NCBI GenBank assembly: GCA_023231475.1
Contig: JALJEE010001547.1
Span: forward strand, 1 to 61,647
Source of the DNA: Seison nebaliae
Taxonomy: Eukaryota
DNA: 61,647 nt
Direction: 5' to 3'
Made by a program: the position numbers and the translations under genes. The notes beneath the pieces are model-generated. The model ran no database searches. It had not been told where the DNA came from and was given only the letters and a program-made list of their open reading frames with translations. Of the stretch, positions 11,108 to 17,100 are shown piece by piece. Each line of letters opens with the position of its first letter. Within the stretch, counting starts at the first letter, position 1.

Positions 11108-14100
11108 TCAATCCGTCTTCACCTCCATGTTCAAATAGATCATCCAATAAATGATGTTGAATAGCACGAATGCGAAAGGAAATATGAAACGAGAAAGGAA
11201 ATCAATCATTTCGGCACTATCTTGAGCACGTTTCACCATTTCGTTTTCGTTCGTTCTCTTACTCGCATCATTGATGAGAAGTGACGAATTGAACATATCG
11301 TTATTTTGACCAGTGCCAGCTGCCATGTTTACTAAAGTTTGGGCTAATTGTTGGGTGGATAAGGAGGTACTTAATTGGTTGGATGGAATATTTTTGGTAT
11401 TGCTATTGGTGTTCGATTTCAATTGATTGTTCAGCATGTTCAAACAAATTTGTTGACGTAAACTATTTAATAGATTACCTTCCGGTTGAGCATCATTCGT
11501 TAAGGAGAGAGCTCTCATTCGCAAATCGTTGTCATCAGTTTTCTGCTCGTTCTCTTCAATGTTAGGAACGGAGTGCATGGTATTGTTCTTACGTAGAACA
11601 TCGATGTTCTGATCTTTCAACTGAAATTTTGAGGAAATGAAGTTGGAAGAATAAAAAATGAAAAACTTTATTAATTTTATTCGATTGATTTAGATCAGTC
11701 ATTGGAATCATTCCTTTCGAATTCGTTCTACAATTCCGATTGTTACCGTTCATGATATTTCGATGTCTCGTTATATTTCCCAATAACTTCTGAGAGAATT
11801 TCCCGTTCTTATGATTCTTCCACGACGAATTGGGATGCTGGTAATTCTTTTGCTTATTCTCATTACCACTATTGTTATTGTTGTTGTTGTACATGAGGTG
11901 GGTACATTCGTCTACGGGGAAAGCGTTATCGTCCATTTCAAACGAAGTGGATTCGGTCGAAGAGATCGACCGTCGAGATTCATTGATTGACATTTGTCTA
12001 TCACGTTGTCGTTGACGTTTATTGTTGTAGTGTTGATGGAGATGTAGAAGTTGATTGTGAGCATATTGTTGATTGGGATAATTGTATGACACATCACCAT
12101 GATTACAATAACATTGTGTTTCAGGTTTGGGATGGGTACATGATACCATATGATTTCCATCACAGTGACAACAATGTGTCTGTTCACACAATGCACAATG
12201 ATGATGACGATAACCGGTACGTCGATGTGGTTGAGACCGCTGACGACTTCCATACATCATTTGTGACGAGTTGTCGTTATATCTCGGTTGCGAATGATGG
12301 TGATGATGATGGTAACGTGGTAAATGTTGTTGTTGTTGTTGTTGTTGTTGACCGTAATTACATTTGAATAGTTTCTGATGAATATGATCGATATTGGAGC
12401 ATTTTATTTGATGGTTGCATTGTTGTTGTTGTTGTTGTTTGGGTTGAATATTATTTTCGTTGTTATTGAATTCAGTTAATGAGCAAAGTGAAGAATGACG
12501 ATTCTCCAAATTCAGATTATTACACTTACCACATTGACTCTTCTCATTGTTCTCATTATTCTTATTCTCATTCGACGATTGTTGATCTTGTTGATTCGCT
12601 TGATCTTGTTGTTGTTGTTGCAATAATGGAGATAACAGTGAATTGAGTAGCCGTTCATTCTTTTTCATTTCTCTGCAACGACTAAGACTACTCGTTTTGC
12701 TATTGGGCTTCTGTCGATCAGGAGTAAAATTTCCATTTTCCAGATCTTTTTCATTCCGTTTCAGATGTACATTCATATCATTCGTTATCATATTATTACT
12801 GTTCGAACTTCCGGTAGTAGACGAGATGATTGGATTGGCAAAAGTTCCTTCTAATCCGTCATTCGGTTTACGAATAAGAAATAATTCGTTCTTTATCTCT
12901 TCACAAGCCGATTTCGATTTACCGAAACTATCATACAATTTCTGTCCATTCTCTTCGAAACCATACAACGGATGATGATGTGATATACCGTCCGCTGATG
13001 ATTTCTTGAATAACATGTCCTCCTAAAACAAATGATGAAATTGAGAAATTGAAAGCATGTTCCCAACATTATCCATCGTGGCCGTACAGTTCATAAGAAC
13101 GGGAACATTTTCGTCATTCGAATTACCGTCCACAATGGTCGAATGTTTCCCAACCCGATTCTTTCTCCGACGTTTTTGCAATTTCTACAAGCGAACTTAC
13201 AATCATGTATATGATAAATACGAACTTTTCTTGCTTTTCTTGCCGTTTCTACTTGTTTTCTCGCCATCACATTCACAAAAGCATATTCGAGTAACGCAGC
13301 AAATACGAAAACTAAACACGTAGACATCCAGACGTCGATGGCTTTCACGTAAGAGACTCGTGGTAATTGTGTACGAATACCTGAAAGAGAAGAAAATGGA
13401 AGATGGATGAGGAAGGAATGTAATCACCTGACGATTGTGTAGTGACGGTGAGGACAGTCAGTAGACCCAGCGAAATTCGTGCGGGAACGGCACGATGATC
13501 GATCCAGAAGGAGACGAATGAGAGACATACGATCAGGATACTTGGCAGGAATACTTGAATGAGGTAAAACCCAAATAATCGTTGCATGAGAAACTCGGCT
13601 TTGATGCAGGTGAAAGCTCCTATAAAATAGATAACACCAAATCAATTGTCAGTTTATAAGCAATTTCTCTCTCTCTATCTCTCTTCCTGTTTTTCTCAAA
13701 AGAGAAAATTTGGGACAAAGAATAAATAAACTTCTTTCGAATTCATTCATATTCACTTAGCTAAATATATCCAATCGTATCTATGTCTCTCATTGTCATG
13801 AAATTTCCTTCTGGATCGGGAAGAGGGTTGTGGAGAAAAAATCATTGAAAGAGACTAATCTCTACAAACCTTCCGCCATCGTGATGATGGTTAGAACGGG
13901 TAGAATCGTGATGCCGATACGAGAGACCACACAGATGTGATCGATCCAATATGAGAGGAATGACAGAATGACAATGATCGATGTCGTGAAATATTCAACG
14001 CCATAATATGAGAAAATTCGAAAGAAGTTCAATTCAAGCATGAGACATGCATATGCTCCTAATGGGATTGGAAGAATGGATTAGACATTTAATTATTAAT

Positions 14101-17100
14101 TTATCTCATTTAATTAAATTATTTGATTTCCTCTCTTGCTAAATTCAATTTCGATATGAATTAAATATTAAAGACCAATACATTACCTGTCGAAGTTTTC
14201 TGATCGCATTGATAATAAGAAATATTCTCCAATTTGAAGTCAGGCATCTTCAACGAATTATGAGAGATGGGTCGTCCATATTTCCATCGGAACTGTAAAT
14301 CTTTCATTGTATAAGCGTCTGAACAATGACACAATGAAACGAATAGGAAAGAAGAGAAATACTAACAACTTCCTATGTTAATTCCACATGTCTGATTATC
14401 TAACGGAAATTTTTGGAGTTTCATTGGACATTCCAATTTGAGTGTAATTCTTCAACGAATAATGAAACATTTATTATGAGAATAGAAATAGAATAAAAAG
14501 AAGAATAGAATAACTAACCGTTGTGAGAAGAGAATTGTTCCATTGGAATAAACTCGAACCAATCGATTTGGTACAGTCACATCATGTTGTCTTCCTTCTT
14601 TCGAGTTTCTGAAGAAAGTGTCTGGAATCCAAACATTATTGATTTGTTCGTAATGGAGAGTGACATTCATTTCATTCTTAAACTTATTTTCATGATTGAA
14701 TGCCAAACGTGGATCGCGCCATATTTGACGAAAGTAGAGATCCAATGTGAAATCCATATTTACTTCATTGATGGAACTGATGGACATGATATGCATCGTC
14801 ATAGAGACATTGACAGGAATTTTTTGACGGAAGAATGGTCGTATTTTCCTATCATAATTTGTCGTTAAACAATATTCCATAAATTCTTCGACCGTCGAGA
14901 TATTATGTTTATCATCCGGTTGACATCGGCCATCTCTCGTCTGTATGGTATCGGAAGCAGCGGCATAAATACAATTGTTGATACAATTCAATCTTTTATT
15001 ATTTCCACGTTGATACGACCCACCAATATGGATATTTGATCGTCCATGACTCAATGAACCTTTGGGTGTGGTACGACCTTGTTGACTGACGGGAGGCATA
15101 ATGAAATTGAGAGGAGCGTCGTCTGATTGAGATTCGGTTGGTGGTCGATATTGTTCGAAAAGTCGCCATTTCTCATAAAATGAACTGAACTTCTCGAGAT
15201 CGTTGAGCAAATATTCGGAGTAATCGGATTGATTAAATTCCTGTTTATCGTTCTCATCGATCAATTCTTCGTTCACATACGACGTTGGATATTTCCTGGA
15301 GATGGTAAAAAAGAATTAGTGATTGAGGAATGAAAGCGTTATCAAAGTTAATAAGTTTTTTAAGATTTGTGGAGATTAATTTTAGAGAGATTTTCAAGAA
15401 GTTTAATGACTTTTTCACTTTAGTTCTGTATTGTATCCACTCGTGGAACAAGCGATGTAAACGGATCTTATAATTGGATGGTGAGGAAGTTGATAGTTGA
15501 AGAATTGAGTTAGAAGGTGGTTGGAATGTGCGATGAATATAGACGTTAATCTCATGCCATAAGATGACGATGGAGAAGACCTCAGCGATTCGTCGGGCGA
15601 CCATTTGAGGTGAGTCTACTTGAGCATTTTCCTCACGGATGATGATAATGGAAAAGACGATGAATATTCTGGCACCATAGAATGAGGAGGAAGAAATGAT
15701 TGTGTGAATTGAATTGAGAGCGAAGTGAAGTGGATGAAATGAAGAAGGAGAAGGCGCTCCCAATCGATATATATATATATATTGCTAATATCAGCACATA
15801 TTGAACGAGCAAAAAATGGGAAGAGGTTAATGAAAATGTAAGGGAAAGAATGGGGAGTACAGATCACTAAGTATTCCGGTCATCCATTTGAATGAGCTTG
15901 GAGCTAAATTTCGTATACGATAATATTTCTATTTGATTCGTTTTATTTACCTATCGCAAATATACCGTCATATTAATTATTAATAAGAAAGAATTGAGAG
16001 GAGGAATGATGGAAGTGAATGGTGAGATCAATGTATCGATTTGCAGAAAAGGTATGAGGGAAATCTTGTCAAACGTGAATCGTGTGCTGGATGTGAATGA
16101 GAGGAGAAGAAGGATGGACCGATTTACTCGGTACATTCAATTCAATGACGGAAATTAATTGGAAGAAATGGAAAATGAGTTTCATCTCGACACCACTCGA
16201 CTCATCATGATGAGAGTCGAAGGATAAGATAAATTGAAAGATAGTTCCATAACAATGAAAGTGAATTGATTTGAACGCGATGATTGGGGAATGGTGGAAG
16301 GGGAGCGATGGTTGAAAGAAGAAAAATAGTTTCTTTTCGTATTTGCTTTTGGATCGTTGGTTGATATAATTATTCTGGATATGGGAAGGAAGATGGTGAG
16401 AGGATAGGAGAAACAAGAGTAGATTTCGTTCACAAGAATGAAACGACAATGTTTATGAAAGAATGTGAGTGAAGGAAAGGAAATCGTAGGAAGGAACAAA
16501 AGAAGAACTATTGAATAATGGAAAGGAATTATGTCGAAGAAGCGAATAGTAGTAATAATATGAGAAGAAGAAAAAAGGAGAACACATTTAGATTAACGTA
16601 ACTGTATTAAGAAGAAGAATAAAAACTCCAAATTATTATAATAACAATTAATATGACATCATCAGTAAGCGGCTGCTCGGAAACGGAGAATAATTACGAA
16701 TTATAAATACGTTTCTCTTCGCCCATCCGACTTTTTGTGTTGAGCAGAGTTCTAATCTTTAAAGACTTACGGCTCATGTCTGTGAGAGTATTGGAAAAGA
16801 AACAAAAGTAGAATGAACCGATTTGAGACGATTGTTCTTGCATGTTTCCATGTTTCTGCTTTCAACCCAAATCTTACTGACGTATCTGACTCTGTCGAGA
16901 TTATTTTAATAATAATGTAACGAAGTCCAAGTGGGAGTGGGAAAAGCAAAGAACATTAGAGCGCTGACGAACGCGAGAACACAAAAGGAAGAGACAGAGC
17001 GATTCATTAATGTAAGACGAAGAAGATTAAATGAAATTTAAGAAAGTCAGATGAATGGATTCTCCGATTTATTAGTGACAATGATTATGACGATCGCTTT

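Follow-up and report, generated by a model that had tools for sequence, protein, structure and literature searches.

The minus strand of a 61,647-nt contig (JALJEE010001547.1, hereafter the window) from the epizoic rotifer Seison nebaliae (Rotifera) carries SNEBB_011403, a gene whose extracellular exon is a 100% match to one database protein. Its product has the Neur_chan_LBD and Neur_chan_memb domains and the Cys-loop of a Cys-loop anion channel subunit, and it is GlyR/GluCl-like, with glycine receptors and GluCl as its nearest relatives in the PDB. The gene contains two versions of the exon encoding strand beta10 and the transmembrane segments M1 and M2, here called A and B, and the intron between them holds a 98-nt element complementary to both. 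Exon A is a real, selected alternative pore exon, and RNA folding strongly predicts a switch in which the two exons compete for the element. The features of the gene are the following.

14519..15295, minus strand: large extracellular-domain exon (loops G, D, A and E); the loop-A Arg is residue 294 of protein P0001
14367..14449, minus strand: Cys-loop and loop B exon
14187..14318, minus strand: upstream constitutive exon (loop F, beta9 and the first loop-C Cys)
14059..14186, minus strand: 128-nt intron preceding exon A, with a core unalignable in a second Seison lineage
13870..14058, minus strand: exon A, duplicated divergent beta10-M1-M2 module (189 nt, phase 1-1)
13941..14037, minus strand: exon A segment predicted to pair with the element (77 pairs, -69.6 kcal/mol; core 14036-13993)
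13722..13819, minus strand: conserved 98-nt intronic docking element, complementary to exon A or B (61 nt common to both duplexes)
13428..13619, minus strand: exon B, canonical beta10-M1-M2 module with the PAR motif (192 nt, phase 1-1)
13499..13584, minus strand: exon B segment predicted to pair with the element (70 pairs, -67.8 kcal/mol; core 13536-13500)
13226..13380, minus strand: downstream constitutive exon (M2-M3 loop and M3)
13184-13068, 13022-11667 and 11620-11111, minus strand: three further exons, encoding a very long Q/N/H-rich M3-M4 loop and M4

An Arg is present in loop A of the subunit but not in loop G (R294 with M235 in P0001, R165 with N106 in P0014), whereas the AVR-14-like control P0008 shows the opposite pattern (R65/Q130) at the expected 65-residue spacing. 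Because a loop-A Arg without a loop-G Arg is the signature of lophotrochozoan GluCls (PMC4338433), we predict that the subunit is gated by glutamate.

Divergence and selection of exon A

The initial annotation of this DNA had described A and B as a tandemly duplicated pore exon. Both exons indeed have AG/G...G/GT ends in phase 1-1, are free of stops and translate as claimed. The long introns around exon A, which had been taken as a sign of regulation, measure 128 and 250 nt, whereas the other six introns that follow the large extracellular-domain exon range from 41 to 69 nt, and the one between A and B contains a regulatory-looking conserved element. The proposed M2 numbering also holds: exon A has Val at -2', Ser at -1', Arg at 0', Gly at 2', Leu at 6', Pro at 7', Leu at 9', Thr at 13', Met at 14' and Glu at 16'. 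The Pro-Ala-Arg (PAR) motif preceding M2 is present in exon B, as in the corresponding A' and B exons of bdelloid-like loci (see later), and is replaced by Val-Ser-Arg in exon A. Exon A was said to be one residue shorter through loss of the M1 Pro. It does have one codon fewer and lacks this Pro, which is nevertheless replaced by Thr and not deleted, because the best nucleotide alignment places the one-codon gap at B codon 28.

In this alignment the two exons agree at 27 of 62 residues and 96 of 186 nt, with 32, 41 and 23 of 62 identities at the first, second and third codon positions, respectively. Pfam recognizes Neur_chan_memb weakly in exon A (E 0.022; 1e-12 for exon B), and against the PDB exon A finds GlyR alpha1 and GluCl chains at E 7e-6 to 2e-5. 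Among 175 homologous segments, retrieved with exon A as query, it carries the majority residue at eight positions where Seison B departs; it has lost the M1 Pro (present in 175), Pro -2' (157), Ala -1' (158), Gly 4' (154) and Thr 7' (165). The hydrophobicity of M1 and M2 is preserved. In a neutral-decay null, in which the third positions of exon B were randomized in 5000 runs, 4% of the runs stayed stop-free, and none reached the identity of exon A to the bdelloid B exon (28/62; null mean 15.6) or its similarity to a GlyR segment. Exon A arose long ago by duplication of the beta10-M1-M2 exon and is not decaying, and the codon-position pattern, the neutral null and the conservation of its 5' third in a second lineage bear out, if indirectly, the earlier suggestion of selection.

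Protein searches with exon A, weakened by short queries and clustering, gave no orthologous A protein, and the best single-stretch identity was 47%. An AlphaFold model of exon A alone was uninformative (predicted local distance difference test (pLDDT) 63, predicted template modelling score (pTM) 0.32). Tandem beta10-M1-M2 copies also occur in other Cys-loop anion-channel models, namely P0004/P0149 (ENA), P0006 (Hyalella azteca) and P0052 (Branchiostoma belcheri), and are possibly further unrecognized alternative pore exons.

An intronic element predicted to pair with either exon

The element (13819-13722), a new finding that the initial annotation had missed, is predicted to pair collinearly either with exon A at 14037-13941 (-69.6 kcal/mol, 77 pairs) or with exon B at 13584-13499 (-67.8 kcal/mol, 70 pairs). 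A total of 61 of its nucleotides are used in both duplexes, so that one element has two partners. Its 5' half with B 13536-13500 gives -51.2 kcal/mol and its 3' half with A 14036-13993 gives -32.8 kcal/mol (0/300 shuffles in each case), and the ends are specific for their exons, the cross pairs having z of -0.2 and -0.9. Because these halves had been picked by eye, we scanned the whole minus strand (GC 24%) in an untargeted manner. Among 4864 tile-direction values (median -18.1), the B duplex ranked 1, 2 and 5 and the A duplex 4, and a blastn scan for inverted repeats placed the duplexes joint first and sixth of 226. Both are thus, as modelled, among the strongest long-range duplexes of the window.

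No shuffled element paired as well (0/400 per exon; z -6.8 and -6.4), and neither did any synonymous recoding of the exons (0/400 per exon; z -3.8 and -3.5). Since recoding costs ∼20 kcal/mol and bdelloid exons pair with the Seison element at only -36.6 to -48.9 kcal/mol, the element fits the present codons of both exons. When either core was forced in an 821-nt region, the minimum energies were -202.4 and -202.7 kcal/mol. Between the element and the outer introns or other Seison exons no significant pairing was detected (strongest z -2.2, 8/300), and an Rfam search gave nothing above chance.

Two other origins of this sequence were considered. An inverted fossil of one exon copy was rejected, as just 7 nt of the element pair with homologous positions in both exons. 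An acceptor-like site at 13811 precedes a short frame that faintly resembles the M3 exon and might mark a hidden exon. This possibility was dismissed, though not by a formal test, since complementarity to exon B accounts for the stretch and gaps in the second lineage shift the frame. Separately, a local purine/pyrimidine hairpin is predicted at 13709-13662 (minus strand), just upstream of the exon B branch region, and may shorten the effective intron.

Conservation in Seison and in bdelloid-like loci

Low-depth contigs ∼88% identical to the window were found in runs that contain it, and two lineages have been described within Seison nebaliae (PMC8351084). In the constitutive exons, all 37 listed codon changes between the lineages are synonymous, and 33/117 third positions and 11/31 fourfold sites differ (9 match rows and changes near piece ends left out). 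A 397-nt contig covers 14002-14060, which comprises the first 19 codons of exon A and its AG, with 7 differences in 59 positions and no gap. The same contig has 18 differences in 144 in the upstream constitutive exon, and the core of the intron separating the two exons is unalignable, 111 other letters replacing 116. Seven or fewer differences in 57 have a P of 0.004 at the 28% divergence of third positions and of 0.58 at the coding rate; the 5' third of exon A is as conserved in the second lineage as the constitutive exon. A second contig covers 13728-13817 in the A-B intron with 7 substitutions and 5 gaps, and the listed changes in the element, from which 4 substitutions are missing, keep both predicted duplexes (-66.5 and -70.6). 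The Seison contigs matched to the window carry no splice joints and are uninformative on expression. A 35-nt match to 13820-13854 in low-depth contigs was taken, by eye, as chance or paralogous: exon A does not follow it, and its flank conflicts with the contig covering 13728-13817.

These data bear on whether exon A might be a silenced relic with no role in Seison proteins, slowly decaying or held in sequence only by the RNA duplex. Exon A forms a long branch in trees and departs at the nearly invariant M1 Pro, -2', -1' and 7' positions, and part of the conserved 5' piece falls within the duplex. We regard a relic as very improbable in the face of the codon-position pattern, the neutral runs, none of which matched the similarity of A to bdelloid B or to the GlyR segment, the eight family-majority residues absent from Seison B and the retained hydrophobicity of M1 and M2.

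Scanning metagenomes with the Adineta steineri orthologue yielded 27 loci. Their B module matches that of named bdelloid proteins exactly or almost exactly, hence our term bdelloid-like. The region from the upstream exon to the start of B is spanned by 15 of them, 13 genomic and 2 spliced (L001 and L006). A duplicate of 192 nt, A', lies between the upstream exon and B in all 13 genomic spanning loci. The 11 distinct A' exons are all stop-free, with a ratio of non-synonymous to synonymous substitution rates (dN/dS) of 0.15 (0.02 for B). A' keeps PAR and the M1 Pro and has L2', V9', K14' and E16'. A structure model of the bdelloid extracellular domain joined to A' has beta10, M1 and M2 as expected, with a mean pLDDT of 74, and leans on the alignment; the best PDB matches of the bdelloid orthologue are glycine receptors. 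Seison A and A' are alike in position, borders, lengths of the flanking introns (121-149 and 213-311 nt in the bdelloid-like loci) and the A15'-E16' ending, residues found in 11% and 1% of homologues, respectively. In the bdelloid-like loci, two additional introns of 49-66 nt interrupt the B module but neither A' nor either Seison exon; therefore, a single exon would alternate with a three-exon module.

The bdelloid-like loci also have a central element, with other predicted partners. It pairs with the intron upstream of A' in 10/10 loci (8 distinct; -35.6 to -41.3, 0/100 shuffles each) and the intron downstream of B finds its best partner in it in 5/7 distinct loci (0/20 shuffles). RNAalifold recovers the upstream stem, 92% paired, and the z values of the element against the exons are mostly near 0. 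In seven of these loci (L005, L007, L008, L013, L018, L023 and L025), YGCY motifs, which we take to be of the Muscleblind type, number 35 in 1180 nt downstream of B and 18 in 963 nt upstream of A'; there are none in 823 nt of the introns inside B, and one in the three Seison introns.

The partners in these relatives help to judge another explanation, in which the Seison element is an editing-complementary sequence, the duplexes are ADAR substrates recoding beta10 and M1, and proteins set exon choice. In its favour are bulged duplexes of 70-77 pairs in coding sequence, where editing would alter the encoded residue at 11 paired adenosines in A and 7 in B, splice sites that lie outside the duplexes and the frequent editing of Cys-loop transcripts in insects (PMC2064938, PMC1919356). 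However, pairing of the bdelloid-like element with introns and not exons fits splicing control, editing needs no single strand shared by two exons, and a literature search on ADAR in rotifers gave nothing relevant. As the main function of the element, editing seems improbable; it would be compatible with competing pairing.

Gene models and spliced contigs indicate how the duplicates are used. The SNEBB_011403 cluster comprises three NCBI models, two B-only and one A+B (KAI3384502.1). Co-inclusion of both exons is thus not constitutive, since two of the three skip A; the initial annotation had listed constitutive co-inclusion as an argument against mutual exclusivity. In L001 and L006, the upstream exon is joined straight to B and A' is skipped, whereas L002, whose 5' sequence is that of L001, has lost five introns and has the upstream exon spliced onto A'. 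Spliced contigs of these relatives thus omit the duplicate or splice into it, and current rotifer gene models miss or misjoin the A isoform.

The same records argue for treating A as a regulated cassette or unproductive exon, whose inclusion would give an A+B subunit with six helices, or one cut after M2, that lowers or poisons output, the element mainly keeping A silent. KAI3384502.1 is such an A+B product, an A-only model is not among the three, and L002 retains the intron after A'. Moreover, 189+192 nt stays in frame, two extra helices preserve the topology, pairing on the upstream side is stronger and more constant in the bdelloid-like loci, and double inclusion of the duplicated exon 3 is reported in silkworm nAChR alpha6 (PMC1919356). 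Yet a cassette leaves unexplained that the element pairs equally well with exon B or, in the bdelloid-like loci, with the intron after B. The PAR motif, M1 Pro and dN/dS of A' are as expected of a working pore, and gene predictors often concatenate mutually exclusive modules, as seems to be the case for the avr-14-like P0008, P0015 and P0018. We consider this reading unlikely.

Two observations concern other parts of the gene. The M3-M4 loop (window 13184-11200, minus strand) has ∼640 residues and is Q/N/H/C-rich, compared with roughly 100 residues in the bdelloid orthologue, and one stretch of it has synonymous changes only between the Seison lineages. At 17007-16922 (minus strand), an unannotated short frame resembling a signal peptide ends at a phase-2 GT that fits the acceptor at 15295, and is possibly the true first coding exon; the three NCBI models start at 15604 or 21340, with no signal peptide evident by eye.

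Proposed switch and comparison with known systems

Taken together, these results make it probable that A and B are two alternative beta10-M1-M2 exons and that the element pairs with either of them and masks the paired one, giving mutually exclusive splicing of the ATE1 type. The element would pair fully with one exon at a time, the paired exon would be silenced, by analogy with human ATE1, and the unpaired exon would link the loop-C exon to the M3 exon in the mRNA. In the growing transcript the element would meet A before B exists and hide it; because this duplex can form before B is transcribed, B would be the default product, which fits the B-only models and the stronger conservation of B. 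Refolding of the element onto B would hide B and release A. Steric exclusion is ruled out by the 250-nt intron, and frame-shift decay by exon lengths that are both divisible by three; as neither can enforce exclusivity, a shared strand is the simplest available device.

The A isoform would retain the predicted glutamate-binding domain in front of a non-canonical pore and M1. In GlyR, a full switch to cation selectivity goes with an acidic residue (Glu) at -1'. Because exon A, though without PAR, has no acidic residue there, we do not predict a clean anion-to-cation switch; the loss of the M1 Pro and the Pro in the middle of M2 point to altered gating. The A product is most likely a minor modulatory subunit in heteromers with B and not a stand-alone cation channel, a role proposed because AVR-14A, its model, gives no homomeric current (PMC8841521). 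Such heteromers would differ in gating, conductance or blocker sensitivity. We advance more tentatively, as a rather doubtful extension, that a bistable pre-mRNA switch, with a strand co-evolving with both exons, predates the seisonid-bdelloid split and was rewired from intronic to coding partners, A altering selectivity or gating behind an unchanged ligand site.

Several observations weigh against the competing-pairing reading or its extension. Unlike in ATE1, no splice site is covered by the duplexes, which start 21 nt into exon A and 35 nt into exon B, so that silencing by masking is an assumption. The folding ensemble is almost wholly in the A pairing (76.7 versus 0.5 expected pairs), and the balance between A and B may therefore be less even than the minimum energies suggest. 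The downstream partner is absent in two of the seven distinct bdelloid-like loci (L005 and L025), and covariation in the upstream stem is weak, with 2/21 pairs changed on both sides and 56/500 shuffles as high. Support from the second lineage consists of two contigs of depth 2.7-3.8 that leave the M2 part of exon A uncovered, and 4/7 substitutions in the element and all 7 changes in exon A are unlisted. A occurs only in the A+B model, L002 continues into the intron after A', and a junction leading from A or A' to the M3 exon was absent from the NCBI models and the bdelloid-like spliced contigs; the method behind the NCBI models was not found in the published passages searched for it. With a Pro at 7' and without the M1 Pro kept in every homologous segment, the exon A product may be non-conducting. 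As to its history, trees of 63 columns do not decide the orthology of A and A' (approximately unbiased test, P 0.46 for one clade and 0.33 for A with Seison B), and exon A scores 55.5 bits on a B-like profile and 33.9 on an A' profile; trees and profiles thus fail to choose between one and two duplications.

If competing pairing operates here, codons are constrained by both the fold and splicing, and evolution can remake such a switch around a persisting exon pair. The locus offers a compact, testable case, in <1 kb of pre-mRNA, of competing RNA pairing with protein-coding partners that encode the M1 region of a channel. It also supplies naturally varied pores behind a single ligand-binding domain, and with them a test of how much divergence M1-M2 tolerates before gating is lost: bdelloid A' (L2', V9', K14', E16') and Seison A (no PAR, P7', no M1 Pro).

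The closest parallel in mechanism is human ATE1, in which either of two partners can pair with a central element, loss of this element leads to double exons, and experiments on this topology showed suppression of the paired exon (PMC7797038). Exons 7a/7b of ATE1 (R1R3/R3R4) share with Seison the duplicated exons, the docking element between them and the competing upstream and downstream partners. However, in ATE1 these partners are located in introns and overlap 3' splice sites, whereas those of Seison are 85-97-nt stretches wholly within coding exons, with the splice sites free. The bdelloid-like partners lie in the outer introns and would loop an exon out; the effect in Seison is predicted only. 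The docking site-selector systems of Dscam, 14-3-3 and Mhc likewise combine one docking strand with competing partners and tandem exons, the partners being described as intronic (PMC6071210, PMC11802352). Their docking sites are outside the cluster and pairing activates the exon, whereas the Seison element is central and its pairing would silence.

With regard to the channel itself, the initial annotation overstated how unusual a pore swap is among Cys-loop receptors, and duplicated-exon events recur in the GLRA2/GluCl/avr-14 family (PMC9741552). Insect nAChR alpha6 has alternative TM2 exons (8a/8b/8c) that, as in Seison, are ancient duplicates, with one conserved major copy and more divergent minor copies (PMC2064938, PMC1919356). 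However, alpha6 is a cation channel, whereas the Seison subunit belongs to an anion channel and exchanges half of loop C together with beta10, M1 and M2, its two copies agreeing at less than half of their residues. Nematode avr-14 (GluCl alpha3) places two alternative channel regions behind one ligand-binding domain, and its A form makes no functional homomer (PMC8841521). It exchanges the entire C-terminal channel and intracellular domain, whereas Seison exchanges only beta10-M1-M2 and shares M3, the loop and M4, in a subunit with a loop-A and not a loop-G Arg. Lophotrochozoan GluCls have in common with Seison the loop-A Arg at the Q141-equivalent position, the absence of a loop-G Arg, a loop-D Arg, the lack of an acidic residue at the start of loop B and PAR, here in exon B (PMC4338433); in contrast, the Seison ligand is a prediction, and glycine receptors best match the bdelloid orthologue. 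Our literature search, with most subscription journals outside its scope, turned up no publication on this rotifer gene and none on partners in coding exons. Alternative pore exons as such are already known; the unusual part of the Seison gene is that its selector sequences lie inside coding exons.

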